The position numbers and the translations under genes are program-made. A model generated the notes under the pieces. It was given only the letters and a program-made list of their open reading frames with translations. It did no database searches and had not been told where the DNA came from. Shown here one piece after another: positions 2,987 to 64,000 of a stretch of 64,000 bases of DNA. This DNA comes from an uncultured Eubacteriales bacterium (GTDB lineage Bacteria; Bacillota; Clostridia; Lachnospirales; JAISER01): assembly GCA_964545475.1 (NCBI GenBank), contig CAZJGG010000002.1:4892-68891 (forward strand), written 5' to 3'. How positions within the stretch are numbered: position 1 is the first letter of the stretch; every line of letters begins with the position of its first letter.

Positions 2987-3049
2987 AAATTAAAAATGGT
3001 AACCCAAGCATACGTGTATTGGATTATCTTTTTTAAAATAAAAAATAGT

Positions 3050-3223
3050 CTGCTATACTCCTTAACCATATAAAATAGTACTGAGTTGCGAGCAAATTTT
3101 GCTTGTGGCAAGGAAGAGACGACGCCGTGTGCTAGCGGCACACAAGAAGTTGATGACGCAGTTCACAAGTAAAATTCGCCGCAAGGCAGTGCTATTTTAT
3201 GTGGTTAGGAGTATATATAGCAG
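3050..3223 (+). repeat. Long palindromic intergenic repeat, family A copy 1 (MITE/REP-like, about 174 nt)
   Basis: Terminal inverted repeats ctgctatactccttaacca...tggttaggagtatatatagcag. The whole element folds as an imperfect hairpin around gtgtgc-tagcg-gcacac. A near-identical inverted copy lies at 42171-42335. Confidence 0.85.
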
Positions 3224-23717: not shown

Positions 23718-23720
23718 TTT

Positions 23721-23784
23721 AACGTGAGTTCGACGAAGTCGAAAAGCCGCTTTAGCGTCTTAGTTGCGGAGCAATTCTCATGTT
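23721..23784 (+). repeat. 64-nt intergenic repeat, family D copy 1
   Basis: aacgtgagttcgacgaagtcgaaaagccgctttagcgtcttagttgcggagcaattctcatgtt. Termini aacgtgag/ctca(c/t)gtt are inverted, with internal mini-hairpins ttcgac-gaa-gtcgaa and ccgc-ttta-gcg. Further copies at 26986 and 42126. Confidence 0.85.
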
Positions 23785-23887
23785 ATTTATAAAAAAATAT
23801 GGCAAAAATAATTATATAACGTTATACTGTTATTAGAGCGATTTGATAAAATTAAATCAGAAACAGTATTGGTAAAGGGTGTTTTTT

Positions 23888-25700: not shown

Positions 25701-26987
25701 ATGGAGAAAAACAATTTAGCACCTACAAATGACAATGCTACTAACAGAGTACCGGAAAACGAGAAAAAGAGTACTTTTGATGTTGCGATTGTAGCGGCAG
25801 GTTTTTGTATTTGTATGTCGGGCTTGTTTACAGGCGCGTCCATGGCAATGGGGTTTAATTTAACCCAAGCAATTATTGCCGGAGTTATTGGTAACACAAT
25901 TTTACTTATTTACGGCGGCGCAATCGGTATGGCAGGCGCAAAAGAAGGTGTTGCTACAGCAATGCTTGCAAGGCACAGCTTCGGGCGTCAAGGTTCTAAA
26001 ATAATCGGGCTTGTACTGGCTTTAACAATGTTAGGCTGGTTCTCAGTTCAAGTAGGCTTTTTCGGCGACACAATCCATGCAATGTTTCCTAATGGGGGAT
26101 TTATAACTACACCATCAGTAGCAGCGTTTTGGGGCGGTATTTTAATGCTTCTTACAGCTTACTTCGGTTACAAAGGGTTAAGCCTTCTTTCAAAAATTGC
26201 AATACCACTTATTACAATTACTTCAATTATCGGTATTGCTGCAGCAGTTAACAAAGCAGGGGGATGGCCGGCGTTAATCGCAATGCAACCTCCACAACCA
26301 TTGTCAATATCTGCTGGTGTTGTTATGGTTGTTGGTTCTTTCGCAGGTGGTGCTTCTGCTCAAGCAGATATATCACGCTATGCAAAAAGCCCTAAAGCTT
26401 CTTGGATTGCAACAATTGTAGGTTACCTTATAGCAAACCTTTTTATAATAACAGCAGGGTTTATTACAAATATGGCAACAGGCGCAGGGGATTTACCAGC
26501 GGCAATGCTTGCTCTTGGCTTAGGCTTCCCAGCGTTAATAGTTCTTATCGGTGCACAGTGGACAACAAACGACAACAACCTTTATACTGCGGCACTTGGC
26601 TTAAGTAATATTATTAAAGTTAAAAAGTCTTACATTACAATTACAACAGGTATATTAGCAACGATTGTTGGTGCGGCAGGGCTTTCTAACTATTTTGTTG
26701 ATTGGCTTGTAATTTTAGGTATAGGCGTTCCTCCAATGGCAGGCATCATCTTAGCAGACTATTTCTTTATAAAAGGTCAGAAATATCAATACGGTCCGGG
26801 AACAAAATATGTATCATGGAACGGACTTGCATTCATTAGCTGGATAATAGCATGTATCGTAGGTTTCGTAGTTAAATGGGGAATCGGTTCAATAAACTCA
26901 TTGGTTGTAGGCCTTGTTGTATATATTGTGCTTATGAAAACAGTGGGACAAAACAACACAGGTATGATTGGCGAAGATATAGAATAA
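25701..26987 (+). CDS. NCS1-family nucleobase permease (cytosine/purine permease CodB-like)
   Basis: About 12 predicted TM segments. The N-terminal region and overall composition look like CodB-type purine-cytosine permeases. 428 aa. Confidence 0.75.
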   Translation: MEKNNLAPTNDNATNRVPENEKKSTFDVAIVAAGFCICMSGLFTGASMAMGFNLTQAIIAGVIGNTILLIYGGAIGMAGAKEGVATAMLARHSFGRQGSKIIGLVLALTMLGWFSVQVGFFGDTIHAMFPNGGFITTPSVAAFWGGILMLLTAYFGYKGLSLLSKIAIPLITITSIIGIAAAVNKAGGWPALIAMQPPQPLSISAGVVMVVGSFAGGASAQADISRYAKSPKASWIATIVGYLIANLFIITAGFITNMATGAGDLPAAMLALGLGFPALIVLIGAQWTTNDNNLYTAALGLSNIIKVKKSYITITTGILATIVGAAGLSNYFVDWLVILGIGVPPMAGIILADYFFIKGQKYQYGPGTKYVSWNGLAFISWIIACIVGFVVKWGIGSINSLVVGLVVYIVLMKTVGQNNTGMIGEDIE

Positions 26988-27050
26988 CGTGACTTCGACG
27001 AAGTCGAAAAGCCGCTTTAGCGGATTAATTGCGGAGCGATTCTCACGTTA
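26986..27050 (+). repeat. 64-nt intergenic repeat, family D copy 2 (same orientation as copy 1)
   Basis: aacgtgacttcgacgaagtcgaaaagccgctttagcggattaattgcggagcgattctcacgtt. It begins inside the permease stop codon and lies 28 nt upstream of the next gene. Confidence 0.85.
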
Positions 27051-42125: not shown

Positions 42126-42152
42126 TAACGTGAGTTCGACGAAGTCGAAAAG
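42126..42152 (+). repeat. Truncated copy of family D repeat (left half only)
   Basis: aacgtgagttcgacgaagtcgaaaagc matches D1/D2 over 27 nt and then diverges, about 18 nt before family A copy 2. Confidence 0.75.
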
Positions 42153-42170
42153 CTGTTTATGTTTTTGCAA

Positions 42171-42335
42171 ATACACTCCTTAACCACATAAAATAGCACT
42201 GCCTTGCGGCGAATTTTACTTGTGGACTACGTCATCAACTTCTTGTGTGCCGCTAGCACACGGCGTCGTCTCTTCCTTGCCACAAGCAAAATTTGCTCGC
42301 AACTCAGTACCATTTTATATGATTAAGGAGTATAG
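42171..42335 (-). repeat. Long palindromic intergenic repeat, family A copy 2 (inverted relative to copy 1)
   Basis: The reverse complement of 3050-3223 matches with about six differences over about 165 nt by my count. Confidence 0.85.
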
Positions 42336-42460
42336 CTATCTATTCATTGTGAGCTGGGCAAAGCAAAAAGCCGCTTAAGCGGCTTTAATTAAGGGGCGTG
42401 TTTACATCTTTTTGAAATTTTTTTATCAATATTCAACACGCCCTTATTAAATTGTTCTCT

Positions 42461-49054: not shown

Positions 49055-50360
49055 TATAATTAATAAAAAGAAAAACGGTTTTGCCTTAGCAAAAAATGAA
49101 ATTGAATTTGTTGTTGATGGCTTTACTAAAGGTGAAATTCCAGATTATCAAATGTCTGCGCTTTTAATGGCTATTTATTTCAAAGGCATGGACGAAAAAG
49201 AAACAAATTGTTTAACAATGGCTATGGCAAACTCCGGCGATGTAGTTGATTTAAGCGAAATCCCCGGTATAAAAGTAGACAAACATTCAACGGGAGGGGT
49301 AGGGGACAAAACTTCTCTTATTCTTGCCCCAATTGTTGCCAGCTACGGCGTTTATGTTGCAAAAATGAGCGGAAGAGGTCTTGGGCATACAGGAGGGACA
49401 ATTGACAAACTTGAAGCCATACCTGGGCTTAAAACAAGCTTTTCCCAAAAAGAATTTATTAACATTGTTAAAGAAAATGGGCTGTGCATTGGGGGCAGCG
49501 GAGATTTAGCCCCTGCGGACAAAAAAATTTACGCTCTCAGAGACGTTACCGCAACCGTTGATAACATTTCCCTCATTGCTTCCAGCATAATGAGCAAAAA
49601 AATTGCGGCTGGCTCAGACTGTATTTTACTGGACGTTAAAACCGGCAGCGGTGCATTTATGAAATCTTACGAGGACTCCGTTGCTCTTGCTAAGGAAATG
49701 GTTAAAATCGGGGATGGCTGCGGTAGAAAAACCGTTGCAATTATTTCTGATATGGGAACGCCACTAGGTAACGCAATTGGCAATACTCTTGAAATATGTG
49801 AAGTTATTGATGTGCTTCACGGAAACGGACCTAAAGATTTAACAGATATTTGCGTTGAACTTGCGGCGAATATGCTTAATTTAGCTGGAAAAGGCGAACT
49901 TAATACGTGCAGAGAAATGGCTCAAAACGCCTTAAAAGACGGAAGTGCATTTGAAAAATTTAAACAAATGATTAAAGGGCAATACGGCCACACATCATAC
50001 ATTGATAACCCTGAAACTTTTGAAAAAGCATCTATACTTTACGAAGTTGAATCCCCCGGAACGGGATATATAAGCGCAATGAACGCCGAAGAACTTGGCG
50101 TTGCCGCAATGATTTTAGGCGCAGGGAGAGAAACAAGCGGGCAAAGCATAGATTTTACAGCAGGTATTATTCTAAAAGCCAAAACAGGGGATTTTGTTGA
50201 AAAAGGTCAAACAATCGCCGTTCTACATTGTAATGACATGGAAAAAGCCAAATCCGCCAGCGAAAAAATAATTCAAAATATAACCTTTTCAGATTTTAAA
50301 CCAGAAATGACTAAGCTTTTCTATTCAAGAGTTGATGTAAAACAAATAACAGAATATTAG
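49041..50360 (+). CDS. pdp: Pyrimidine-nucleoside (thymidine) phosphorylase
   Basis: DKHSTGGVGDKTSL and SGRGLGHTGGTIDKLE motifs. Overlaps cdd by 14 nt. Confidence 0.95.
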   Translation: MRIVDIINKKKNGFALAKNEIEFVVDGFTKGEIPDYQMSALLMAIYFKGMDEKETNCLTMAMANSGDVVDLSEIPGIKVDKHSTGGVGDKTSLILAPIVASYGVYVAKMSGRGLGHTGGTIDKLEAIPGLKTSFSQKEFINIVKENGLCIGGSGDLAPADKKIYALRDVTATVDNISLIASSIMSKKIAAGSDCILLDVKTGSGAFMKSYEDSVALAKEMVKIGDGCGRKTVAIISDMGTPLGNAIGNTLEICEVIDVLHGNGPKDLTDICVELAANMLNLAGKGELNTCREMAQNALKDGSAFEKFKQMIKGQYGHTSYIDNPETFEKASILYEVESPGTGYISAMNAEELGVAAMILGAGRETSGQSIDFTAGIILKAKTGDFVEKGQTIAVLHCNDMEKAKSASEKIIQNITFSDFKPEMTKLFYSRVDVKQITEY

Positions 50361-50382
50361 GCAGGCTCTTATAGGTGATTAA

Positions 50383-51090
50383 ATGAAGCTAAAGGAATTT
50401 TTAATTGGAAATATCCCTGCAATTTTGTGGGGAGATAAAAGCACTAAATTGGTTATTGCAGTACACGGCAATATGTCATCGAAATCTGATGTGCCTATTG
50501 CCGTTTTAGCAGAAGAAGCCGTGCCTCTTGGCTATCAAGTATTAAGCTTTGATTTACCAGAGCATGGCGAAAGAAAAACTGAGCCAACTCTATGTAAAGT
50601 GCAGACATGTGTTGCGGAACTGGAAGAAGTAATAAAATTCGCAAAACAGCAAGTTAGTTCTATTTCTCTAATTGCTAACAGTATGGGTGCATACTTTAGT
50701 TTGCTTGCATATAAAGACGAAGATATAAAACAAAACTTATTTCTTTCACCTGTTGTGGATATGGAACGCATAATTAATAATATAATGGGCTGGTTTAACA
50801 TTTCAGAAGAACAGCTTTATAAAGAAAAAGTAGTTCCTACACCTATCGGGCAAACCCTATATTGGGACTATTATCAATATGTGAAAAATAACCCCATTGA
50901 AAAATGTAATGCTCCTACAGCCATTTTGTATGGCAAAAAAGATGAAATATGCGAATATGATTATGTTTCCTCTTTTACTAAAAAGTATAATTGCAAATTG
51001 GATATATCGGAAATCTCTGGACATTATTTTCATACGAAAGAGGATATTAAGATTTATCGTGATTGGATTAGAATGAACATTGCAAAATAG
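50383..51090 (+). CDS. Alpha/beta-fold hydrolase
   Basis: VIAVHGN, nucleophile elbow ANSMGA and a C-terminal GHYFH. 235 aa. Confidence 0.7.
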   Translation: MKLKEFLIGNIPAILWGDKSTKLVIAVHGNMSSKSDVPIAVLAEEAVPLGYQVLSFDLPEHGERKTEPTLCKVQTCVAELEEVIKFAKQQVSSISLIANSMGAYFSLLAYKDEDIKQNLFLSPVVDMERIINNIMGWFNISEEQLYKEKVVPTPIGQTLYWDYYQYVKNNPIEKCNAPTAILYGKKDEICEYDYVSSFTKKYNCKLDISEISGHYFHTKEDIKIYRDWIRMNIAK

Positions 51091-51130
51091 ATGTTTTTGC
51101 GATATGCATTATTCAAATAAGGGGTAAGTT

Positions 51131-52018
51131 ATGGATTTAGATTTACTAAAGAAAATTAAAAAAAACAGCATAAGAGTTGCATTAAATAAAATGAATAAAA
51201 ACAGCATTAGAGTTACATATGATTCTGATACAAAAGCGGAATTTCCTATTGGATGTTCCAAAATTGGTGGAAAACCTGATTTACCAAAAGATTTTAAATG
51301 GTTTTATTTTAATGGAATAGCATACGATGAAATTGAAAAAAACCGTCCATTAAGTTTCCTTGCTCAAATTAATTGCAAAGATGCAAAAAAATACGATATT
51401 GAAAGTTTATTACCAGCGCAAGGTATACTGTACTTTTTTTATGAAATTGAAACATTGACAGGCGGCTTTGACTCGAAAGATAAAGGAAGTGCAAAAGTAT
51501 ACTACTATGCTGGAAGTGAATCTGAACTTAGACGAACTGATTTCCCGACAGATTTACTTGATGAATACAAATTACCTGAAATGACAATTAATTTTGAATC
51601 AGAAGATGATTTTCCTTGTTTTGAGGAGTTTATTCAATGGCATCCACAGTTTGACTATAAACAATCGAACACTTATGAGGATTTAAAAGGCAAATTAGTT
51701 CCATTGCATGAGGAAGGGGAAAATATCAATAAGCTTCTTGGATATGCTAACCTAATTCAAGATGGAATGTTGTTAGACTGTGAACTGGTTGCAAATGGCA
51801 TTTGTACAGGAACATCTATAGAAATTCAGAAATCTGACTTAAAACAGTATAAAAAAGATTGCATAAAGTGGCAGTTGTTGTTTCAGCTGGATTCTATTCA
51901 AACTAAGGGGTACGAAATGGTTTGGGGAGACGTTGGCAGAATTTACTTCTATATACGAAGAGATGATTTAAAAGAATTAAATTTTGATAATTGCTGGCTG
52001 ATTCTTCAATGCTATTAA
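51131..52018 (+). CDS. DUF1963 (YwqG-like) domain protein
   Basis: GCSKIGGKPDLP, LLGYANLIQDGM and WGDVGRIYFYIRRDDL resemble the YwqG/DUF1963 pattern. Confidence 0.65.
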   Translation: MDLDLLKKIKKNSIRVALNKMNKNSIRVTYDSDTKAEFPIGCSKIGGKPDLPKDFKWFYFNGIAYDEIEKNRPLSFLAQINCKDAKKYDIESLLPAQGILYFFYEIETLTGGFDSKDKGSAKVYYYAGSESELRRTDFPTDLLDEYKLPEMTINFESEDDFPCFEEFIQWHPQFDYKQSNTYEDLKGKLVPLHEEGENINKLLGYANLIQDGMLLDCELVANGICTGTSIEIQKSDLKQYKKDCIKWQLLFQLDSIQTKGYEMVWGDVGRIYFYIRRDDLKELNFDNCWLILQCY

Positions 52019-52072
52019 AGAGCAGAATGTAATTCTATGTACGCACCGGCTTTACAAAACCAGTGCAAAAGC

Positions 52073-53332
52073 TTAATCAACAAATTTTATGCTTGCGCCC
52101 ATTTGCTGTAAAGCCCTTTCTATACTATCGTATCCACGCTCTATGTGTTCAGAATTAGTTACAATAGTATTTCCCTCTGCGGTCAGTCCTGCTAATATTA
52201 GCGCTGCGCCGCCACGTAAATCTTTGGAGCTTACTGTTGCGCCCTTAAGCTTTTTAACTCCTCTTATTATAAATGTTTTTCCGTCTGTCGAAACAAGTAT
52301 GTTTGCGCCCATTCTCGTTAGTTCGCTTATATGCTTGTTTCGGGATTCAAAAAGCGTTTCTTCAATTACGCTTGTGCCATTCGCTATGCTTAAAAGCGCC
52401 ATTAGCTGGGGCTGCATATCCGTTGGAAATCCGGGGTGGGGCAGCGTTACAAGCCTATTAACGCTTTTTAATTTCCCGGGGGCTTGAAGCGTAATAATAT
52501 TTTTCTCTTCCTTAACAATACATCCGGTTTCAAGAAGCTTTGAGGTTATAGGGTATAAATGCGCAGGGTTAACGTTTGTAAGAGTGACTGAGCCTTTTGT
52601 TATTGCGGCGGCAACTAAATAAGTTCCGGCAACAATTCTGTCCGGCATAACGATGTGTTCAACCCCATGAAGCTTTTTAACCCCTTCTATAACAATTGTA
52701 TCGGTTCCTGCGCCTTTTACTTTAGCGCCGCAACCGTTCAAGAACACTTGTAAATCACATATTTCAGGTTCCTTTGCGGCGCAGTTTATAATTGTTTCGC
52801 CTTCGGCAAAAACAGCCGCAAGCATAATGTTTTCCGTTGCGCCCACGCTGGGGAAATCCAAATTTATTTTTGCTCCAATGAGCCTATCCGTTTCACAATT
52901 TATAAATCCGTGTTCTTCCGTTATATTTACGTTCATTTGGCGAAGCGCTTTTAAATGAAGGTCTACCGGGCGAGAGCCTAACTCACATCCTCCGGGGTAA
53001 GAAATTCTGACCTTTTTAAACCTGCCTAAAACCCCGCCTAAAAATATAAATGAGGAACGCATTTTCTTAACTAAATTGGCCGGAACTTCGGTTTCTAACA
53101 TCGGCTTAGAGTTAACAATAAGCGTATCTTTCTCCACTTTCGTCTTACATCCTAAGGCTTCTAAAATCTCTATTGAAATAGTAGTATCTAAAATCTTAGG
53201 AAAATTGGTTATAACAGACGTGTCTCCGTTGAGTATGGTCGCCGCAAGAATCGGCAAAATTGCGTTTTTGCCGCCGCCAATACTTAATTCGCCCGACAGC
53301 TTTTTTTGGCCGCAGACATGATATTCGCCCAT
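52073..53332 (-). CDS. murA: UDP-N-acetylglucosamine 1-carboxyvinyltransferase
   Basis: GGKNAILPILAA and active-site YPGGCELGSRPVDLH. GGGGGTG precedes the ATG at 53332. Confidence 0.95.
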   Translation of the reverse strand: MGEYHVCGQKKLSGELSIGGGKNAILPILAATILNGDTSVITNFPKILDTTISIEILEALGCKTKVEKDTLIVNSKPMLETEVPANLVKKMRSSFIFLGGVLGRFKKVRISYPGGCELGSRPVDLHLKALRQMNVNITEEHGFINCETDRLIGAKINLDFPSVGATENIMLAAVFAEGETIINCAAKEPEICDLQVFLNGCGAKVKGAGTDTIVIEGVKKLHGVEHIVMPDRIVAGTYLVAAAITKGSVTLTNVNPAHLYPITSKLLETGCIVKEEKNIITLQAPGKLKSVNRLVTLPHPGFPTDMQPQLMALLSIANGTSVIEETLFESRNKHISELTRMGANILVSTDGKTFIIRGVKKLKGATVSSKDLRGGAALILAGLTAEGNTIVTNSEHIERGYDSIERALQQMGASIKFVD

Positions 53333-53494
53333 CAAAATACACCCCCATAATTGCGTATAATCCAGTTTATGCACTATTTTGGAAAGTTGTTACAAGTTGC
53401 AAGCTGTGATGGGATGTTCAATTTTTTGCAAGAAACATACATTAGTAAATTATAAAAAGCCCAAGGGTTTATACCGCAAGGACTTTTTTAAATT

Positions 53495-55789
53495 TTATCT
53501 TACTTTAAACACATTAATCATATCCATCAAAATCTGCGCTTGGGAATTAAGCTCTTCTGAAGCAGCGGCGGATTGCTCTGTAGCCGCTAAATTATTTTTA
53601 ACAACATCTGAAATCTTCTTTATTCCATCGCTAACACTTGAAATTGAGTTGGCCTGTTCTTCAGAAGCCCCGGTAATTTGGTCAATAAGCCCGGAAACTT
53701 CATTGGCGTTTTCAACGATAATGTTAAGTTCTGCCGCTGTTTCTTCCGCAATTTTCATGCCGTTATTAACTCTGGTTATGGAATTTTCAATTAATTCCGA
53801 CGTTTCTTTTGCGGCGGTTAAGCTTCTCCCGGCAAGGTTTCTTACTTCTTCCGCAACTACAGAGAAGCCTTTGCCGTGTGCGCCGGCTCTTGCAGCCTCT
53901 ACTGCGGCGTTAAGAGCAAGTAAATTTGTTTGGAAAGCAATATCGTCAATAACTTTTATTATTTTAGAAATGTTTCCGGACGAATCTTTTATGCCTTCCA
54001 TTGATTCCAGCATATTTTGCATTGCCTCATTGCCTTTTCTTGCGTTTGCAATTGATTTTTCAGAAAGCGCATTAGCATTTAAGGCGTTTTGCGCATTATT
54101 CCTTGTTTTAGTGCTTATGTCGTTTACTGAATCAGTCAGTTCTCTAAGGGAGATGTCTTGCTCGTTAGCTCCCTGTGCAAGCTCGCTTGCGCTGCTTGCA
54201 GTCAATTTAGAACCTTCTAGCACCTGCTCTGAAGAAGCTAAAATAGTAGCCATAGTGTCACTTAATGAATCGTTTATTGTGTTTATGGAGTCTTTAATTG
54301 TAGTAAAATCTCCTAAATACTCTCTTTGTATGCTTTGAGACAAATCTCCGCCAGCCATTTTGGAAAGAATATCGTTAATTTCCTTTATATAAGAAGATAT
54401 TTCTGCAACAGTTGTATTAAGAGAATCTTTTACAATTGCAAAGCTTCCTTCGTAGTCTCCTTTTACACTTATGGATAAATCCCCTTTAGACATTTGCAAA
54501 AGTGCTTCGGAAGCTTCGGTTATTGGAGTGGAAACAGCTTCTAAAAGATTGTTAAGCCCCTCCATAATCTCGATCCAGTCTCCGCTGTAATTAGAGGTAT
54601 CTATTCTGTTTGTAAGGTTGCCTTTAATAGCACTATCTGCAAGGTTTTTAACAGATTCAGAAATTGCCTTAATAGCGCTCCTTACACCTTCTATAACATC
54701 ATTAATAAAAACTTTTTTTCCAGGTAATTTTTCCATAGGCGCATTAAAGTCGCCAGCTACGATTTCGCCTAATGTTGACATAGCGGTTTTATTTGTTTCA
54801 ATATACCCGGAAACCATTTCATTAACAAGGCTTGCCGCCTCTTTGTAAGACCCATAATATCTATCAACGTCAATAAATAAATCGATATTTCCGTTAACAT
54901 TATGTTCTTTAGACATATATGCTAAATCGTTAACAAGACTTTTTATAACATCGGCAACCTCAAAAAAGCTGTTTGCAAGAAGGCCTGTTTCATCGTCTGT
55001 TGTTTTGTATTTATTAAAGTTAAAATCGCCCTTTGCAACACTATCAGTAATTGATAGCAACCTTTTCATTGGTTTTGTAATCCTTGAAGCAGTTAAATAG
55101 GCAATAATTATTGACAAAACCATTAAACCGATGCCTAAAAAGAAAATTGCGGACTGAACATTATATGTTGATAAATTAATATTATCTGAAAGCTGTTCTG
55201 TGATAGAATGAATATCCTCTAAATAATTACCAGTACCAACAACCCAGTCAAAGGGAGCATAATATTTGGCGTATCCACGTTTCTCCTTTGCTGCTGTTTC
55301 TCCGGCTTTTGGGAAAAAATAATTTGTATATCCTCCGTCCGGCTGCTTAGCGCTGTTAATAATATCTTTAATATATTCGTTGCCTTTTTCATCCTTGGCA
55401 TTAAATCTGTTTGTGCCCTCAGTTTCCTTTCCTAATAAAACAACATTTACGCCCTCAGAGGTGTCTACCCAGAAATAATTTGTTTTTTCATACCGTAACT
55501 CTCTTATTACGTCCGCAGCTTGCTTTTTTGCTTCGCTTAGAGTCAACTCGCCATTTTGGCTTTTTTTGTAATAATAATCACAAATACTTAACGCATTTTC
55601 AACTTGAAGATATACTATTCTGTCGAAATTTTGGTTCATTAACTCTTCTTGTTCAGTGAGCCTTGACCTTCCAACTTCTCTTACGTTACGAATACCGAAA
55701 AGACCAATAACTGTTATCATTATAATGCTTAAAAATATTGAACTTGAAATAAGCTGCTGTTTTATTGTTCTTCTCATTTTGGGTTTCAT
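53495..55789 (-). CDS. Methyl-accepting chemotaxis protein (Cache-type sensor, repeated HAMP-like linkers)
   Basis: N-terminal TM, periplasmic Cache-like region (YFWVDT...YAPFDWVVGTG), second TM, long HAMP-like repeats, and the highly conserved signalling hairpin IDDIAFQTNLLALNAAVEAARAGAHGKGFSVVAEEVRNLA. Confidence 0.93.
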   Translation of the reverse strand: MKPKMRRTIKQQLISSSIFLSIIMITVIGLFGIRNVREVGRSRLTEQEELMNQNFDRIVYLQVENALSICDYYYKKSQNGELTLSEAKKQAADVIRELRYEKTNYFWVDTSEGVNVVLLGKETEGTNRFNAKDEKGNEYIKDIINSAKQPDGGYTNYFFPKAGETAAKEKRGYAKYYAPFDWVVGTGNYLEDIHSITEQLSDNINLSTYNVQSAIFFLGIGLMVLSIIIAYLTASRITKPMKRLLSITDSVAKGDFNFNKYKTTDDETGLLANSFFEVADVIKSLVNDLAYMSKEHNVNGNIDLFIDVDRYYGSYKEAASLVNEMVSGYIETNKTAMSTLGEIVAGDFNAPMEKLPGKKVFINDVIEGVRSAIKAISESVKNLADSAIKGNLTNRIDTSNYSGDWIEIMEGLNNLLEAVSTPITEASEALLQMSKGDLSISVKGDYEGSFAIVKDSLNTTVAEISSYIKEINDILSKMAGGDLSQSIQREYLGDFTTIKDSINTINDSLSDTMATILASSEQVLEGSKLTASSASELAQGANEQDISLRELTDSVNDISTKTRNNAQNALNANALSEKSIANARKGNEAMQNMLESMEGIKDSSGNISKIIKVIDDIAFQTNLLALNAAVEAARAGAHGKGFSVVAEEVRNLAGRSLTAAKETSELIENSITRVNNGMKIAEETAAELNIIVENANEVSGLIDQITGASEEQANSISSVSDGIKKISDVVKNNLAATEQSAAASEELNSQAQILMDMINVFKVR

Positions 55790-55803
55790 TTATTTCCTCC
55801 TTT

Positions 55804-58029
55804 TTATCGTTCAATAAGTTCTATGGCAATTTTAGCGTCTCTGTTGGAATATGCCTTAAGCTGCTCCGATTGAATATTTATTTCACTTTTAACATCAGCA
55901 GTATTGTTCATTATTTGCTCTGCAATATCTATTACTTCCTTTTTGTCTAAATTAAAGCAGTTGACATATGTTTCCTGTTTTATATAATTCATAAAAGATT
56001 TAATTTTAGGGTCGTAAACTATGCCAATAATAGGAACGTTCATGCTAACGGCATAAATAAGGGTATGAAGCCTCATAGCAATAACAAGCTGTGTAATACC
56101 AATAAGCGCCATTATTTCCTGTGCATTATATTCTTGGGACAAAACAATCGATTTTACGGATAACCTTTCACTTACTTCTTTAGATATAATTGCATCGTAT
56201 GGCTGCTGCATAGGAATAAACAAAGGTATCAAATCGTATTTTAAGCAAATTTCATTAATAATATCAGCCATTTTCTGAACAAAATTAATATCGTTATATT
56301 TCCACTGCCTTATTGAAACGGATAAATATTTGCCGTTTTTATCTATTTTTTCTTTTTTAAATATATCTTCAAGAGCGTCCGTTTCAATGGGTTTTAAGGA
56401 AAACGTTGGGTCAGAAGTAAATAGAACCTCTTTGTTTGTAACGCCTAGCTTTTTAAGCTCATTTATGGACTCTGTTTCTCTAAGGGTAATAAAATCGCAA
56501 ATTTGCAATGCACTTTTCGCAATGCCTATATTATGTTTTTTTATTATCGGACCTATGCCGTTTGCGTAAAGCATTACTTTTAAACCCAGTTTTTTTGCAA
56601 AATGCATAAGCGTTGTATAATAAAATAAAGATTGGGTGCTAGTAATGTCTTGAATAAGGCTGCCCCCACCGTTTAAAAAAAGCCTGCTCATTTTCAAATG
56701 CTTACGGATTGCAAGCAGGTTTGAGCGGTTTATTGCATAAACATTGTGCCTTTGGCTTGTTTCCTTAGGGTTTTTAGACAAAACTGCTATTGAAATATCC
56801 GGCTTTTCTTGCCGCAGGCTTTCTATAATTGCTTTTAAAAGGGCATCATCTCCGCTGTTTTTAAAGCCGTAATACCCGGATAACATTACATCGAAACATT
56901 TATTTGCTTCTTTCGTACGTTTAATTATATCGGTATAAATCTCCAAATGCCTTAGCTTCATACTTTCTTTTGAAAAGTTTGAACGAGCAAAAATATTAAG
57001 ATTATCTCCTAATTTTTTGGCAAAAATTTTATTTTCAAGCAGTACTTCTATTTTCTCTGCCATTTGTTCAAAGTTTGCAGGCTCAACTAAAAGCCCTGTT
57101 TCTCCGTCTTTTATTAAGTCGGGTATGCCACCAACAGCAGTTGAAACCGTGGGTTTGCTCATTTTTGCCCCTTCAAGCAAAACATAAGGAAAAGACTCAC
57201 TGTAAGAGGATAAAACATTTATGTCTATACAGTTTACAAAACTGAAAATATCGTTAATAAAACCTAAAAATACAAAATGTTCAGAAACTTTTGCGGCTTT
57301 GATCATGTTTTGAAGATTATTCTGCTCCGGTCCTTCCCCTGCGAGAAGAAAAATTACATCTTTTCGCTTTTTTATAATATTTATAGCTGCCTTTATAAAT
57401 ATTTCATGACCTTTCACTTTGTCAAAACGGCCGATAATTCCTATTATGGTTTTGCCTTCATGGTTTACGCCGTGAAGCTGTAAAAATTGTTCCTTAGGCG
57501 TAAATTCTATTTCCATTTCAAAATCAATAGAGTTATAAACGGTATAAATACGATCCTTATCAAAATCTCGTTCGCTAAGCATGTCTTTAAACTGGTTAGA
57601 AACAGCAATGTAATAATCCAGAAACCGTAATGCCCAAGAGTTTAATTCGGTAAACACCATTTTTTTGTATAAACTGTCAGTAAAGTCCATTCTATAGTCG
57701 CTGTGAACGGTGGTGATCATAGGTATTTTAATAAACGGACGAAGGAGTACCGCAATAAAATTTGCCCTTGCCCCATGGGCATGGATTAAATGGTATCTTT
57801 CCTGTCTAATGTGGGTTATAAGCTTTTCAATAATTGTCAAATCGTTTCTGTAACGCTGCTTTATAAGCATAGAGGGTATATCTGTATCTTTTATTTCCTG
57901 ATAAAAAACTCCCTCCATAAAGCAAATAACTCTTATAAATATATCTTCCTGTAAAGCGGATAAAAGAGTAAAAACATGAGTTTTCGCCCCACCTTTGTCT
58001 CCGCCGGATATTAAATGTAGAACTTTCAA
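55804..58029 (-). CDS. csaB: Fusion protein: GT4 glycosyltransferase (N) + polysaccharide pyruvyl transferase CsaB (C)
   Basis: N-terminal half has MKVLHLISGGDKGGA...ESFPYVLLEGAKMSKPTVSTAVGGIPDLIKDGETGLLV (GT4). C-terminal half has SGYYGFKNSGDDALLKAII...GGGSLIQDITSTQSLFYY...YANGIGP (CsaB-type). Confidence 0.85.
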   Translation of the reverse strand: MKVLHLISGGDKGGAKTHVFTLLSALQEDIFIRVICFMEGVFYQEIKDTDIPSMLIKQRYRNDLTIIEKLITHIRQERYHLIHAHGARANFIAVLLRPFIKIPMITTVHSDYRMDFTDSLYKKMVFTELNSWALRFLDYYIAVSNQFKDMLSERDFDKDRIYTVYNSIDFEMEIEFTPKEQFLQLHGVNHEGKTIIGIIGRFDKVKGHEIFIKAAINIIKKRKDVIFLLAGEGPEQNNLQNMIKAAKVSEHFVFLGFINDIFSFVNCIDINVLSSYSESFPYVLLEGAKMSKPTVSTAVGGIPDLIKDGETGLLVEPANFEQMAEKIEVLLENKIFAKKLGDNLNIFARSNFSKESMKLRHLEIYTDIIKRTKEANKCFDVMLSGYYGFKNSGDDALLKAIIESLRQEKPDISIAVLSKNPKETSQRHNVYAINRSNLLAIRKHLKMSRLFLNGGGSLIQDITSTQSLFYYTTLMHFAKKLGLKVMLYANGIGPIIKKHNIGIAKSALQICDFITLRETESINELKKLGVTNKEVLFTSDPTFSLKPIETDALEDIFKKEKIDKNGKYLSVSIRQWKYNDINFVQKMADIINEICLKYDLIPLFIPMQQPYDAIISKEVSERLSVKSIVLSQEYNAQEIMALIGITQLVIAMRLHTLIYAVSMNVPIIGIVYDPKIKSFMNYIKQETYVNCFNLDKKEVIDIAEQIMNNTADVKSEINIQSEQLKAYSNRDAKIAIELIER

Positions 58030-58065
58030 AAAAACACCTCTTAAGCTGTTCCGAAATTTAAGTAA

Positions 58066-58803
58066 TCAGTTACTACTTAAAAAAACTTCGCATAGCAGCT
58101 GTTTCTCTTCTGTAATATTAAATATTTTAACTAAGTATTCAAGTTTCCCTACGGAAAATGTTTGTACCAGAACATTTTGACCCCGAGTACATTCTTTTTT
58201 ATAGGCACACTTCATGCTTGTAATAACAGATTTATCGTAAACATCGTCAGGGATTCCGTTAATTGCCCATTCTAAATATGTTATGTTATTAACGTGCAGA
58301 TTTTTATCCATATCCCGTCTCGTTGTAATAAACGTATATTCATCTAAAAGAGTTTCAAACTCAAAGCTACTTATTTTATAATCTTTTTCAAGCCTTGACG
58401 GGCGCAGTTCTCCATATTCTTTAAAAAACCTGTCTTCAAGTTTAATTGGCCTGCGGCGCACAAGGTCTGAATAAACCCAGGCGGAATTAACTAAAGCTAA
58501 TAATTCGCCTTGATTATTTATTACCTCAAAGCTTCTTTCTGCTAAAATTCCTTTAAAAAAAGTCGGCCATGTGTTTATTGTAAATTCCTCGTTCCAAAGA
58601 GGATATTTTAATATTTTAACTTGCCAGTTTGTAAGCAAAAAGCCTACCATATTATCCGAAAACCATTTCATTGGGCGAGATGTTGTTTCTGTATGCATTA
58701 AAGAAGCTTCTAATATGCATTCTACAAGGCTTGGCATAGTAGCCTGCATATCAAGCCTTGCCCCTCTGAAAGGAATTTTGTTTTTACAAGAAAAATAGTC
58801 CAT
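58066..58803 (-). CDS. Acyl-ACP thioesterase
   Basis: Double hot-dog architecture about 245 aa long, with NLHVNNITYLEWA, typical of FatA/B-like bacterial acyl-ACP thioesterases. The ATG at 58803 follows GAGGTGG. Confidence 0.75.
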   Translation of the reverse strand: MDYFSCKNKIPFRGARLDMQATMPSLVECILEASLMHTETTSRPMKWFSDNMVGFLLTNWQVKILKYPLWNEEFTINTWPTFFKGILAERSFEVINNQGELLALVNSAWVYSDLVRRRPIKLEDRFFKEYGELRPSRLEKDYKISSFEFETLLDEYTFITTRRDMDKNLHVNNITYLEWAINGIPDDVYDKSVITSMKCAYKKECTRGQNVLVQTFSVGKLEYLVKIFNITEEKQLLCEVFLSSN

Positions 58804-59237
58804 TTTACCCACCTCTATTTAAAATTAAGGTAAATTAATACAAAAATAATATATCAGAATTTTATATCTAAAACAAGTAAATTTATGCAAACACATTGTT
58901 TTTTTCAAACATTGACTAGTTGATTTTGGTGGAATGGGGCTGTATAATGTTATTAAGTTAGAATGATTTATATATGGAATTAGATTTATGGCTTGTCGCC
59001 AACCAGCTAAGCGTTCATTGTGTTCTTTTGGCGTAATAATTGAAAATTCTTATTAGGAATACATCTCTTTTGCTTCTTTTATTGCCTTAACGCAGCTTTT
59101 GAGAAATGAAAGCTCTAATCGATGACGGCGTAACGGTTATTATGGGAAGTTTATGGGGATTAAGGTAGGTTCTGATAAGGCTGTGGATTTGTTGACGAAG
59201 ATATAGGGTATAATATTATAAAAAGGAGTGCGGTAAT

Positions 59238-60476
59238 ATGAATCAAAATTTCATTACTAATTTGAAAATTGAAAAGGTTAGACATCTGGAAAACATCAAT
59301 ATTGCCTTGTCGTCTAACGAAAGAAAGCACTTAATTTTAACAGGGAAAAATGGCAGTGGTAAAACAAGCCTATTACAATCAATTCAAAATTATTTATCAA
59401 TGTATCCGGAAGGCAAAACTTTGGCAGGGTTAATTAAAGAAGTAGAATATTGGGAAAAAGCAATTGATGGCCTTGTCATTAAGAACGAAGATGATAAATT
59501 AAAACAAATTCAAAATAAAGAAGGCTATGATTATCGTAAAAGTCAATATTGTAAGTACACAAGTGGAATTATACTTGATATTATTTCAGAAGCAGATATT
59601 ATAGAAAGCTATAATAAAGGTGAATTTATTATTGCCTATTACCGTGCGGATAGAAATTATAAAGCTTTAGAGGCAAAACATATTGAAAAAATCAGTTTCC
59701 AAGACAAATATGCTATAAACGAAGAACCAGGAAAACTACTTATAAAATATCTTTTGGATTTAAAAACAAGCCAAGCGCTAAATGAAAAAGCAAATAAAAA
59801 AGAAAAATCAAATGAAATTGAAATGTGGTTTAATAAATTTGAAAATTTATTAAAAGAATTATTTGAAGATGAAAAGCTGACAATTGACTTTGATATTGAA
59901 TCTTTTGAATTTTCTATTATTGCAAGCAACAGAGAACCTTTTGGGTTTAATACAATGTCAAGTGGTTATTCTGCTGTTCTTGACATTATTGTGGATTTAA
60001 TGATGAGAATGGAGAAAAATGCAAGAGGTTTCTATAACATACAAGGGGTTGTTTTAATTGATGAAATTGAAACTCATTTACATCTTGAATTGCAGAAAAA
60101 GATATTGCCATTTTTAATAAGCTTTTTTCCAAACATTCAATTTATTGTTACAACTCATTCGCCATTTATTTTAAATAGTGCAGATAATGTAATTATTTTT
60201 GATTTGGAGAATAAAATTTCCGTGCAAAACGGGCTTAAGCATTTGCCTTACGCTGGTGTTGTTGAGGGATATTTTGAAGTAGATACTTTGTCAGATGAGT
60301 TGAAAGAAAAATTTAACAGATACAAGGAACTATCAAAAAAAGCTTTGCTTGAAGAAAGCGATTATGACGAATTAGCTGATTTAGAAAGATATTTGGATGA
60401 AATACCGGACTATCTTGCACTTGATATTTCAACTGAATATTCAAAATTAAAATTAGAGTTTGAAAATAGGGGGTAG
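59238..60476 (+). CDS. ABC-like AAA ATPase (AAA_21/AAA_15 type), PtuA-like
   Basis: Walker A GKNGSGKTSLLQ, signature-like MSSGYSAVL, Walker B/D-loop VVLIDEIETHLH and H-loop VTTHSPFIL. AAGGAG RBS at 59223. Visibly more AT-rich than the flanking core genes. Confidence 0.8.
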   Translation: MNQNFITNLKIEKVRHLENINIALSSNERKHLILTGKNGSGKTSLLQSIQNYLSMYPEGKTLAGLIKEVEYWEKAIDGLVIKNEDDKLKQIQNKEGYDYRKSQYCKYTSGIILDIISEADIIESYNKGEFIIAYYRADRNYKALEAKHIEKISFQDKYAINEEPGKLLIKYLLDLKTSQALNEKANKKEKSNEIEMWFNKFENLLKELFEDEKLTIDFDIESFEFSIIASNREPFGFNTMSSGYSAVLDIIVDLMMRMEKNARGFYNIQGVVLIDEIETHLHLELQKKILPFLISFFPNIQFIVTTHSPFILNSADNVIIFDLENKISVQNGLKHLPYAGVVEGYFEVDTLSDELKEKFNRYKELSKKALLEESDYDELADLERYLDEIPDYLALDISTEYSKLKLEFENRG

Positions 60477-60482
60477 TTTATC

Positions 60483-61130
60483 GTGATTTTTATTAAAAGA
60501 ACTAAAACGGCTCCTGAAATTTTAGATATAGAAAAACGAAAAGCAAACGGGTCATACAACAAGGGGGATGTTAAATCATTGTTGTATAAAGATTTTTATG
60601 AAAAATGTTATATTTGTGGCGTTAAACCTCTTCAAGATGGTGGTGAAATAGAACATTTGGTAGCACATAAAGGGGATTTAGATAAAAAGTTTGATTGGGA
60701 AAATTTATTTTTGTCTTGTGGACATTGTAATGGTATTAAAAATAAAAAAGAATACAGCGAAAATGTCATTAACTGTACAAAAATCAACCCAAATACCCAA
60801 ATTAAACAAGTATTATCAGACAATAGTGTTTGTGTTGAATTAATCGACGCCAATATACAGTCAGAAACAACAGCAAAGTTGATTGAAGAATGCTTTAATG
60901 CCGAAAGTACCATCACAAGAAAAAAAGCATCAACTTATAGATTGGATGTGCTTAAAAGTGAAATGGGCAAATTTTATAGTGTAATATTAAAGTATAAAAA
61001 AAGTCAAAAATCTTATTATAAAAAACAAATTGAAGCAATGTTGCAAGACAATACAAAGTTTACAGCATTTAAAAGGGATTATATAATACATAATAAAGAT
61101 TTTTCACAAGAGTTTGCAAATTGTTTTTAG
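60483..61130 (+). CDS. HNH endonuclease, PtuB/TIGR02646-like
   Basis: CYICG...EIEHLVAHKGD...WENLFLSCGHCNGIKNKK has the Cys/His spacing of an HNH motif. The GTG start lies 6 nt after the ATPase stop and follows AGGGGG. Confidence 0.8.
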   Translation: MIFIKRTKTAPEILDIEKRKANGSYNKGDVKSLLYKDFYEKCYICGVKPLQDGGEIEHLVAHKGDLDKKFDWENLFLSCGHCNGIKNKKEYSENVINCTKINPNTQIKQVLSDNSVCVELIDANIQSETTAKLIEECFNAESTITRKKASTYRLDVLKSEMGKFYSVILKYKKSQKSYYKKQIEAMLQDNTKFTAFKRDYIIHNKDFSQEFANCF

Positions 61131-61229
61131 GTGGTAAGCTTATGCGCACTTTTTACAAGCCTTCCGGTAAGGTTAAAAACAGGGCGGGACAGGAAGCCGA
61201 CTTAAATTCATAACTGAATAGGATTAGTC

Positions 61230-61276
61230 AAGGCGAAAACAGACATATTGTGTTTAAGTATGTCTGTTTTTGCCTT
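61230..61276. terminator. Bidirectional hairpin terminator
   Basis: 18-bp arms aaggcgaaaacagacata / tatgtctgtttttgcctt with one mismatch and an internal T-run. Lies between convergent genes. Confidence 0.75.
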
Positions 61277-61295
61277 GGAATTTGCAAACATGTAT

Positions 61296-62570
61296 TTAGT
61301 CTTTGTGCAGCTTGATTTTAAATTTGAATTTAATGTTAGGTTTTTTTAGCGGAAGCTTAAAAGACGGATGCTTAAATTTTATGGAAAACGTCCTTTTTAT
61401 TTCTGACTTTTCTTGTTTGTTATCTTCAATCAAGTTTATATAAAGTTCTTCAATGTTTTTTGCAAACTGTTCGGCAGACAAATGTTGAATTGAGTTATAT
61501 CCATTTTGAGCAATTTCCGCCGTATCTTTTTCATTGGTTAAAACTTGATATAAAACTTCAGACAGCTCTTCATCTTTTTCAAATATATAACCTGTCTCGC
61601 CATTTTTTATTATACCTTCTATGCTTTGGTCTTTTTTAGCAACAACAGGAAGATGGGTCGCCATTGCTTCCAAATAAGTAAGTCCTTGTGTTTCTGAAGT
61701 TGAAGCGGTTGTAAAAACGTCTCCAATTTGATAATATTTGCCGATTTCGGAGTAAGGTTTACCTCCCGTAAAAATAACGCTTTGGGATATATTAAGTTCT
61801 TTAGTCATTTCTTTGTATCCGTTAATTAATGGACCGTTACCAACAAGAACAAGCTTAACATCAGGTATTTTTTTTAATAAATCCGGCATAGCGTTGATTA
61901 CAACATCAAGGCTTTTTTCCTGGGCAATTCTGCCAACATAAACAATAACTTTTGAAGCATCAGCTAATCCTATTTCTTTTTTCAAATCCTGAATTTCTTG
62001 TTGTTCAAAATTTTCACGTCTAAGATTAGAAAAATTAAGCCCGGTGGGTATAACCACAATTTGTCGCTTTACGCCGTATTCTATAAGGGCTTGTTTTGTT
62101 TTTTCCACGGGTACAACAACAATTCTTGCTCTGTTACAAAAAATTCGGCTAAAAGCTTTTGCCATGTTTGGGGTCATTAAATGCCCTTTGGCAACGTAAT
62201 GGACGTAATCCTCGTACATTGTGTGATATGTGTGTACAAGAGGTATTTTATATATTTCCGAAAGAACTTTGCCAAAAAGCCCTATGGCAAATTCTGTTTG
62301 GGTGTGTACAACGTCTAGCTTTAGTTTTTTAAAATTAAGTATAAGCTTAGGTGAATACATATATGTCATACGGTGGGTTGGTAAAAATACAAATGGCATA
62401 CTTGGAAGCCTAAAAACCGTTGGTTGCTTTTCTTTGCAGCTTGGGTCGTTTGCCGTAATAATGTATACCTTATGCCCAAGCTTTTCAAGCTCCGTCTTTA
62501 ATGTCATGGAAGATGTGGCAACACCGTTAATTTGAGGGAAGTAAGTGTCTGTAAAAATTCCAATATTCAT
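61296..62570 (-). CDS. GT4 glycosyltransferase (diacylglycerol glucosyltransferase-like) with basic C-terminal tail
   Basis: MNIGIFTDTYFPQINGVATS N-terminus and ETQGLTYLEAMATHLPVVA...GETGYIF (the E-x7-E region of GT4). The Lys-rich C-terminus suggests membrane association. Confidence 0.85.
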   Translation of the reverse strand: MNIGIFTDTYFPQINGVATSSMTLKTELEKLGHKVYIITANDPSCKEKQPTVFRLPSMPFVFLPTHRMTYMYSPKLILNFKKLKLDVVHTQTEFAIGLFGKVLSEIYKIPLVHTYHTMYEDYVHYVAKGHLMTPNMAKAFSRIFCNRARIVVVPVEKTKQALIEYGVKRQIVVIPTGLNFSNLRRENFEQQEIQDLKKEIGLADASKVIVYVGRIAQEKSLDVVINAMPDLLKKIPDVKLVLVGNGPLINGYKEMTKELNISQSVIFTGGKPYSEIGKYYQIGDVFTTASTSETQGLTYLEAMATHLPVVAKKDQSIEGIIKNGETGYIFEKDEELSEVLYQVLTNEKDTAEIAQNGYNSIQHLSAEQFAKNIEELYINLIEDNKQEKSEIKRTFSIKFKHPSFKLPLKKPNIKFKFKIKLHKD

Positions 62571-62586
62571 TTAATTTCCTCCATCT

Positions 62587-63105
62587 TCAATTTGAAAACT
62601 CGCTAAGAATATCATAACTTTTTTTATACTCAGGGTAAATTTTTACAGCATATTCTAATAAAACTTTTGCTTCATCATATCGTTTGTCCCTTTTGTATGT
62701 TTCCGCTAAACTTATTATGGACTGTACAAAGCTATGATAATTTTCTTCATATTCCGTAACAATTTTTAAATTGTCATATCCGAAATTTAGCTTAATATCC
62801 TTGTTTGTCATTTCATTATTAAATTTAAGCATTTTTTTCCTTCCCAGCTCTTTTGCAAGCTTGTGCCGGTTTACAAGCCGTTCATTTTTTTCCGACTCGT
62901 AATCCAGTGCAGGAATAACCCTTAAATCCGGTTTAAAGAAAAGGCTTTCGGGTATTTCTTGGTTTAATGTTTTATTGGCTTCCATCTCTTCCTCTATAAA
63001 AGCATTTAGCTTTTCATATCTGCTTTTTTCTCCTCGCTTAATAAAGTAAGAAATAACGGAAATTAAAATAAGTAAAATGGATAAGGTTATAAACGTAAAT
63101 TGCAT
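62587..63105 (-). CDS. Membrane-anchored hypothetical protein (possible TPR-like C-terminus)
   Basis: N-terminal TM (FTFITLSILLILISVISYF). The C-terminal AETYKRDKRYDEAKVLLEYAVKIYPEY is TPR-like. Confidence 0.5.
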   Translation of the reverse strand: MQFTFITLSILLILISVISYFIKRGEKSRYEKLNAFIEEEMEANKTLNQEIPESLFFKPDLRVIPALDYESEKNERLVNRHKLAKELGRKKMLKFNNEMTNKDIKLNFGYDNLKIVTEYEENYHSFVQSIISLAETYKRDKRYDEAKVLLEYAVKIYPEYKKSYDILSEFSN

Positions 63106-63338
63106 TTTATTGTTCCTTTCGACCGTTGCAACCTTTATAGCTTTTATTCGTTTTATTTATATACGATATTCCAACATATACGGCTGAATTCATCTTTTAT
63201 AAATTAAACTTAATTATTTAACGGTCAAATATGTATAGTTCTATTATAACCTAAATATTTAAAATTGAACAGCTATTTGCTTTTAATTTTATTATATATA
63301 TGATATACTCAAAATATCAATAGAAAAGGAGTTTAACA

Positions 63339-64000
63339 ATGAAAAGAAGAAAAAACGGAAACAACAAAAAAAGATTCTTTGCCGCCTTGATAGCGGGGAT
63401 CATAATTTTTGTTATGATTTTCGGAACGTTTCTGCCAATGATTTTGAACGCCCAAGAGCTGACGGAAGAAAGTGCCCAAATTACAATTGACGGAAAAGTT
63501 GGGTTTGACGGCAGATATAAGCTTATTAATTCAACTCCGTTTATGATTAACCTTTCAAACAACGGCGATAATTTCGCCGGAAAAGTCCAAGTAAAAATTG
63601 ATGTGGCAGACCCTTATAACACTAATGCGACAAGCCGTTATCAGCTTTTTTCAGAGAAAATAGAACTTCCGGCAGGCGCAACAAAACAAGTTAACATGAG
63701 CATACCAATAACTCAGCTTAAAAACTTTTTTACGGTGGAATTAATAGACGATTCCGGCAAAATGGTATCTTCTAAAAATATTCAAGCTAAAGGAGTGCCA
63801 TCAGAAAGCATTTTCGTTGGGGTTTTAACGGATAATAAGCAAGGGCTTAACTATTTAAAAAACCTTGAAATAAATAACTATTATGCGCAAAAAGAGGAAG
63901 AAACCATTAAATCTATAGAGCAGTCATTATTTTTTCTTGATAATACCACTCTTCCCACAGAAATGGGCGTTTTAGATTGCTTTAATATAATTATAGTAAA
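63339..64000 (+). CDS. Secreted or membrane-anchored hypothetical protein (partial, runs off the window)
   Basis: ATG at 63339 after AAAGGAG. MKRRKNGNNKKRFFAALIAGIIIFVMIFGTF signal/anchor. The frame stays open to the window end, and the frame is absent from the supplied ORF track, presumably because it has no stop within the window. Confidence 0.7.
   Translation, partial: MKRRKNGNNKKRFFAALIAGIIIFVMIFGTFLPMILNAQELTEESAQITIDGKVGFDGRYKLINSTPFMINLSNNGDNFAGKVQVKIDVADPYNTNATSRYQLFSEKIELPAGATKQVNMSIPITQLKNFFTVELIDDSGKMVSSKNIQAKGVPSESIFVGVLTDNKQGLNYLKNLEINNYYAQKEEETIKSIEQSLFFLDNTTLPTEMGVLDCFNIIIV

Follow-up and report, generated by a model that had tools for sequence, protein, structure and literature searches.

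A compact PtuA-PtuB pair, probably a stand-alone Septu anti-phage system, in an uncultured Eubacteriales bacterium

The ptuA-ptuB locus and its two proteins

In a 64,000-nucleotide (nt) stretch of contig CAZJGG010000002.1 (assembly GCA_964545475.1, positions 4,892 to 68,891 of the forward strand; hereafter, the window) from an uncultured Eubacteriales bacterium, an ABC-type ATPase gene, ptuA, is followed by an HNH nuclease gene, ptuB, in a two-gene cassette that very probably constitutes a stand-alone (type I) Septu anti-phage system. Both open reading frames (ORFs) lie on the + strand where an earlier note on this DNA had placed them, 6 nt apart: ptuA (59238-60476) starts with ATG and encodes a 412-amino-acid (aa) ATPase of the AAA_15/AAA_21, SMC_N-like type, and ptuB (60483-61130) starts with GTG and encodes a 215-aa HNH (beta-beta-alpha-Me) nuclease. 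The assigned starts share their first residue with homologues, the PADLOC profiles align from position 1-2, and each gene is preceded by a ribosome-binding site, AAAGGAG about 8 nt 5' of the ptuA ATG and a Shine-Dalgarno-like AGGGGG, read in the sequence on the + strand (60467-60472), 10 nt 5' of the ptuB GTG. The latter element falls within the last codons of ptuA, a placement that suggests translational coupling between the two genes.

PtuA matches the PADLOC profile PtuA1 (PDLC00268; E = 5.3e-122, 406 bits) with residues 3-410 aligned to profile positions 2-405 of 411, such that 98% of the profile is covered, and it exceeds the Pfam cut-offs for AAA_21 (72 bits), AAA_15 and SMC_N. All of the ATPase motifs recognized earlier are intact, namely Walker A (GKNGSGKT, residues 36-43), the signature (MSSGY, 240-244), Walker B (VVLIDE, 271-276) with the THLH that follows it, and the H-loop (TTHSP, 305-309), and the core that is invariant across 45 homologues comprises G36, N38-T43, S241, G243, Y244, D275, E276, H280, H282 and H307-P309. 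Sequence and profile searches of the PDB return the PtuA proteins of retrons Ec83 and Ec78, E. coli Septu PtuA (8EE4) and, weakly, AriA. AlphaFold models of both proteins were built on family alignments, and that of PtuA (predicted local distance difference test, pLDDT, of 79) retrieves PtuA chains exclusively among its top 50 PDB fold matches, including those of 8eea, 8ee4 and 8sux. PtuA E276 aligns with E396 of Ec78 PtuA, a residue essential in that protein (PMC12819146). Further counterparts can be proposed for the essential K43, D316, H75 and N91 of the Septu system EcB88 (PMC13096335), to which PtuA K42 and D275 and PtuB H58 and N74 correspond by position, as matched without aligning an EcB88 sequence.

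The PtuA C-terminus is acidic and helical, as had been noticed: residues 366-412 hold 14 D/E vs. 6 K/R, the chain is modeled here as two helices (373-387 and 391-410), and E383, Y385, L386, E388, P390, D391, Y392 and L393 form an invariant block. To judge from the homologous sequences, the acidic tail is a conserved trait of the family and does not mark the protein as divergent. By analogy with published structures, in which the PtuA C-terminal extension clamps the helical C-terminal domain of PtuB (PMC12819146), it is probably the PtuB-binding C-terminal extension.

PtuB matches PADLOC PtuB1 (PDLC00321; E = 5.7e-59) with residues 1-213 on profile positions 1-220 of 223, and its Pfam HNH score lies above the threshold (24.1 bits vs. 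a cut-off of 21.4); dozens more PADLOC PtuA and PtuB subfamily profiles rank below the PtuA1 and PtuB1 matches. The HNH motif described earlier was recovered as C42-x2-C45 ... E57-H58 ... W72-x-N74-L75 ... C79-x2-C82-N83, and all of these residues are invariant across 48 homologues. C42, C45, C79 and C82 make up a four-cysteine zinc knuckle, and the catalytic His and Asn are intact, with an H-to-N spacing of 16 (H58/N74) as in EcB88 (H75/N91; PMC13096335). The PtuB model (pLDDT 95.4) features a helical C-terminal domain at residues ~125-214 and yields eight significant PDB matches, all of them PtuB chains aligned over 208-249 columns and including chain 8eea_G of E. coli Septu, before the next match, a bare HNH domain, appears at E = 0.7. 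The single PtuB sequence finds no match in the PDB; the solved PtuB proteins, from retrons, were reached with the family profile.

The two genes also travel together: PtuB is encoded directly downstream of PtuA in 11 of the 13 loci whose PtuA relative is near full length, in otherwise unrelated contexts, and no conserved third gene stands beside the pair across those 13 loci.

Septu assignment and competing explanations

The proposal in the earlier note of a Septu-like PtuA/PtuB cassette is thus borne out by PADLOC, where both proteins match PtuA1 and PtuB1 over their full length, by Pfam, by the fold searches, by the conserved pairing and by the best NCBIfam matches, which are PtuA, PtuB and TIGR02646, the last being the family whose pattern had been recognized in PtuB, though all three fall far below their cut-offs. 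The PtuA/PtuB Septu system reportedly goes back to Doron et al. 2018, and the E. coli Septu structures 8EE4, 8EE7, 8EEA and 8SUX served for comparison. As in other stand-alone Septu systems, ptuA and ptuB form a two-gene operon whose full-length PtuA1/PtuB1 matches are accompanied by folds that match the chains of 8eea; PtuA is devoid of an N-terminal extension, has its Walker A Lys at ~42-43 and bears a conserved C-terminal extension, and PtuB combines the HNH nuclease with a helical C-terminal domain. The differences lie in sequence and size. Structural alignments with E. coli Septu give only 14-16% identity, which reflects the known breadth of the family. PtuA is ~50 residues shorter than its stand-alone counterpart (412 vs. 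465 aa), mostly between Walker A and Walker B, whose spacing is 233 residues here vs. 273 in EcB88; the PtuB HNH His lies 17 residues nearer the N-terminus (H58 here vs. H75 in EcB88); and the window PtuA signature ends in Tyr (MSSGY).

Several observations weigh against a stand-alone Septu system. The NCBIfam scores are low for both PtuA (115.5 bits vs. a cut-off of 500) and PtuB (27.7 vs. 150), as is to be expected, these models being Ec78 retron equivalogs, and the TIGR02646 match is likewise far below its curated cut-off. No integrase, transposase, reverse transcriptase (RT) or second defense gene was found nearby, so that the cassette does not lie in a defense island, and the search for an empty site, an integrase or flanking repeats that would document an insertion found none of them. 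Defense, toxicity, oligomeric state, ATP control, trigger and substrate would all be attributed to the pair by analogy with relatives that share 14-19% identity with it in structural alignments. Finally, Y244 at the end of the signature is an invariant Tyr in the present clade, the same position being Gln361 in Ec78 PtuA and Leu in the PtuA of E. coli Septu, which is ATPase-inactive (PMC12819146); PtuA proteins of this clade may hydrolyze ATP or merely bind it.

Some of the same observations could be taken to mean that the pair belongs to the Septu family but has left defense, be it as a decaying remnant, as a selfish addiction module or through co-option for a housekeeping nucleic-acid transaction: it is solitary, stands outside a defense island with no mobile-element genes nearby, and has neither a promoter nor a dedicated terminator that can be demonstrated above chance. 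We regard such an exit from defense as very improbable, since both ORFs are intact and span their profiles in full, every catalytic and family-invariant residue is kept, the ribosome-binding sites are good, and identical copies occur in several public assemblies.

A retron origin was weighed next to this. The effectors of type I-A retrons (Retron-Eco7/Ec78 and Retron-Eco4/Ec83) share with the window pair a homologous ATPase core and an HNH nuclease, with equivalent Walker B Glu and HNH His residues; among solved structures the top sequence matches are the PtuA proteins of retrons Ec83 and Ec78 and retron PtuB, the best NCBIfam matches are models of retron Ec78 PtuA and PtuB, and the PADLOC profiles ATPase_I-A and HNH_I-A match as well. 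The pair could accordingly be an orphaned type I-A retron effector (Septu type II, Ec78/Eco7- or Ec83/Eco4-like) whose RT and noncoding RNA (ncRNA) have been lost or reside elsewhere, a scenario to which we give hardly any credence. According to published work, retron type I-A PtuA proteins differ from stand-alone ones in possessing an N-terminal extension, a helical flap and DNA-binding loops, and the extension contacts the RT and the ncRNA (PMC12819146). In PtuA from the window the Walker A K42 aligns with Ec78 K99, so that a retron-type extension of ~57 residues is absent, and the protein as a whole is ~130-140 residues shorter (412 aa vs. 542-552 aa in retron PtuA proteins). Its PADLOC score is 406 bits for stand-alone PtuA1 vs. 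125 for ATPase_I-A, and the NCBIfam scores are far under the equivalog cut-offs. The locus itself is equally unlike a retron, with no RT, ncRNA or multicopy single-stranded DNA: no RT domain is encoded among the neighboring genes, Rfam has no match at E <= 1 in 50000-64000 nor at gathering score across the whole window, and the 434-nt gap upstream of ptuA, with its 288-nt leader, folds no better than shuffled sequence (z = 0.45). The homologous loci are likewise free of RT genes. With neither RT nor ncRNA nearby and no N-terminal extension, the pair is therefore assigned to stand-alone (type I) Septu.

Another ABC-ATPase system that resembles Septu, such as PARIS (AriA/AriB), a Gabija/OLD-family system, an AbiE-type toxin-antitoxin ATPase or a type IV restriction accessory, can be set aside as scarcely plausible: the Pfam name AAA_21 refers to the AbiEii toxin, AriA chains are weak PDB matches to PtuA (E ~1e-6) and the HNH protein has a weak mREase_IV match (E = 1e-5), but all of these alternatives trail the PtuA/PtuB profile scores by tens of orders of magnitude, and the ATPase is partnered by an HNH protein that has a PtuB-specific helical domain rather than by a TOPRIM/DUF4435 AriB or a helicase. 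Although PARIS, Gabija and OLD share with the window pair a broad ABC/OLD-type ATPase superfamily and a logic that joins an ATPase to a nuclease, their nuclease partner is TOPRIM and not HNH, neither window protein has a TOPRIM or DUF4435 match among the PADLOC and Pfam profiles, none is fused to the ATPase, and the likeness to AriA is weak and confined to the Walker B and H-loop region.

Expression signals, neighborhood and acquisition

Two promoter-like sites precede the cassette on the + strand: TTGATT-17-TATAAT (58920-58948), a candidate ptuAB promoter that would imply a 5' leader of ~290 nt, and TTGACG-16-TATTAT (59192-59219), a candidate only, directly upstream of the ptuA ribosome-binding site. 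In a consensus scan promoter-like sites were no commoner than in shuffled sequence (24 found vs. 18.5 +/- 5.3 expected), and a terminator consensus scan gave no signal above background; no regulatory claim is therefore built on either. The ptuA leader holds no + strand ORF of at least 30 aa. The terminator that the earlier note had assigned to the pair corresponds to a strong hairpin that is real but probably not ptuB's alone. It lies at 61229-61277, unassigned to either strand, between the convergent ptuB and GT4 glycosyltransferase genes, and was not called by the terminator scan; its 19-nt arms, which contain A- and T-tracts, are 95% complementary and 11 nt apart (region z = -4.16). Because it sits only 18 nt past the GT4 stop (61296) vs. 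98 nt past that of ptuB, it probably serves both genes as a common, bidirectional terminator. The ~100 nt that separate the hairpin from the ptuB stop (61131-61228) appear by eye GC-richer than the AT-rich cassette and contain a small CCTTCC...GGAAG stem, with no ORF and no Rfam match; this segment could be a remnant of the vehicle that delivered the cassette or, alternatively, intergenic DNA of the original host.

The region just upstream of ptuA is also where assemblies end. Four independent public Logan assemblies (SRR10912415-18) contain the exact locus, and all of them break within 59174-59208, at contig ends that overlap by 25-30 nt, while the right side of the cassette is unbroken. The break site overlaps the TTGACG -35-like hexamer, and its 25-mer occurs once in the window and nowhere in JGI metagenome contigs. 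This pattern suggests a branch in the assembly graph, arising from a second genomic copy of the 25-30-mer or from a strain variant, and the coincidence with the putative ptuA promoter might reflect a strain-variable or rearranging control region.

In composition the cassette stands apart from its surroundings, as the earlier note had remarked. At 28.6% GC it falls ~3.2 standard deviations (SD) short of the 36.7% averaged over the window (SD 2.5% between equally sized windows). No other 1.9-kb sliding window is as low, and of the 50 genes these two rank last in both GC and third-position GC (GC3). All of the neighboring genes are on the - strand, opposite to the cassette. On one side they encode a MurA-like protein, an MCP chemoreceptor, a GT4 plus pyruvyl-transferase fusion and an acyl-ACP thioesterase, on the other the GT4 glycosyltransferase and a 172-aa protein, and the further neighbors are housekeeping genes for GreA, LysRS, a cytidine deaminase, a nucleoside phosphorylase and oligopeptidase F. 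That the pair interrupts a run of cell-envelope genes, as had been put forward, thus holds as a description of its neighbors but not as an insertion event, for which no empty site was found.

The search for related junctions was centered on the GT4 protein and covered 185,579 species-representative genomes, in which its relatives are all at most 58% identical. Among the 80 related GT4 loci compared, none has PtuAB or the thioesterase beside GT4, and the pairing of GT4 with the 172-aa gene is the sole synteny retained. The host lineage is poorly represented in these genomes, the best GT4 match (58%) coming from a Eubacteriales metagenome-assembled genome (MAG) and the next-best including several Defluviitaleaceae MAGs. 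Exact-protein look-ups with the thioesterase and GT4 returned only contigs of the same organism, all of which agree with the window and offer no alternative junction. Around the cassette, the search for a target-site duplication or terminal inverted repeats met only short AT-rich chance matches; no tRNA genes that might have served as integration sites and no prophage genes were found, and plasmids contain no match to the upstream gap. PtuA relatives are absent from 50,697 phage genomes and are represented in plasmids by two distant ones. Together, the low GC content, the opposite orientation and the absence from the 80 related GT4 loci suggest that ptuAB was acquired horizontally into a region of housekeeping and envelope genes.

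Elsewhere in the window we noted two families of intergenic repeats. A 164-nt element is present in two copies that are 96% identical, lie 39 kb apart and are oppositely oriented (3044-3207 on the + strand and 42181-42344 on the - strand); it is bounded by terminal inverted repeats of ~29 nt (TATACTCCTTAACCATATAAAATAGTACTG ... CAGTGCTATTTTATGTGGTTAGGAGTATA), contains a GC-rich internal hairpin and matches no Rfam family. One copy directly adjoins the start of an SBP_bac_5 gene and the other falls between glycogen-synthase and FakA-like genes, and the element could be akin to a miniature inverted-repeat transposable element (MITE) or else be an undescribed structured RNA. A 66-nt repeat family with inverted ends (TAACGTGAG...CTCAYGTTA) occurs at 23720-23785, 26985-27050 and 42126-42191: two near-full copies, 91% identical, flank a PucR-regulator and permease pair, and the third copy is partial and shares ~10 nt with the end of the 164-nt element at 42181-42344.

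The compact PtuAB clade, its proposed mechanism and its significance

The earlier note had considered a divergent subtype on account of the compact size and the short acidic C-terminus of PtuA, a suggestion not upheld by the family at large, in which both traits are general. The PtuA homologue search gave more than 7,600 matches at E <= 1e-10; the best 120 of these, from which lengths and identities were taken, are 407-436 aa long apart from two of 372 and 366 aa, none is less than 51% identical to the window protein, and the named ones are from Blautia and Lachnospiraceae. The PtuB search shows the same picture. The nearest relative is only 64% identical for PtuA and 61% for PtuB, and the pair is hence a new sequence within a known clade, one that is abundant in Lachnospiraceae and other gut Firmicutes.

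The contexts of the pair vary between genomes, with ptuA-ptuB found beside a HipA-like gene in one of them and after rplM-rpsI in another species known from several metagenomes. Among viral contigs in IMG/VR there are seven substantial PtuA relatives (31-45% identity) and three short fragments, with PtuB adjoining in five, which indicates that the PtuAB family is sometimes prophage-borne. One homologous locus (L004, 8335-9476), whose PtuA is 60% identical and among the closest with usable context, carries an 83-aa gene and a HipA_C kinase gene, a toxin-antitoxin-like pair, after PtuAB, with a DUF6718 gene and, at a distance of ~5 kb, a Mor-family regulator gene on the upstream side; this copy therefore sits in a mobile or defense-rich region, unlike the copy in the window.

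Work on E. coli Septu and on retron PtuAB permits a mechanism to be outlined for the window pair. PtuA would dimerize and further oligomerize, with a dimer gripping the helical domain of a single PtuB by means of its acidic, helical C-terminal extensions; bound ATP would hold the nuclease silent until a phage cue releases or activates PtuB, which would then nick DNA or cleave the tRNA-Tyr variable loop and so arrest the growth of the infected cell and block phage production. In E. coli Septu, PtuA and PtuB assemble into a 6:2 horseshoe whose nuclease is inhibited by ATP (as cited in PMC12640716 and PMC12819146), and a tail-fiber protein has been reported in published work as a cue for stand-alone Septu. 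The substrate of PtuB differs by homologue, with DNA nicking described for E. coli Septu, cleavage in the tRNA-Tyr variable loop for EcB88 and Eco7, and single-stranded DNA for Eco4 (PMC12640716, PMC13096335).

In light of this diversity, it is conceivable but rather unlikely that the compact PtuA/PtuB clade, with proteins of ~415 and ~220 aa, an invariant Tyr at the end of the signature and <20% identity to characterized Septu, constitutes a functionally distinct Septu subclass in its trigger, its ATP-control logic or its nuclease substrate.

Septu is predicted in ~4% of prokaryotic genomes (PMC11811056), and since the system is both well known and common, the ptuAB cassette amounts to a routine annotation rather than a discovery, callable automatically by standard tools and of little import beyond annotation. 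What it adds is of modest value: a solitary, probably horizontally acquired Septu unit in a poorly sampled Clostridia lineage, and a revised reading of the acidic PtuA C-terminus, earlier seen as a possible mark of a divergent subtype and now as a conserved family feature that is probably PtuB-binding. The very large clade of compact Firmicutes PtuAB pairs to which it belongs may furthermore offer a small model in which the substrates chosen by Septu variants and their control by ATP can be compared.

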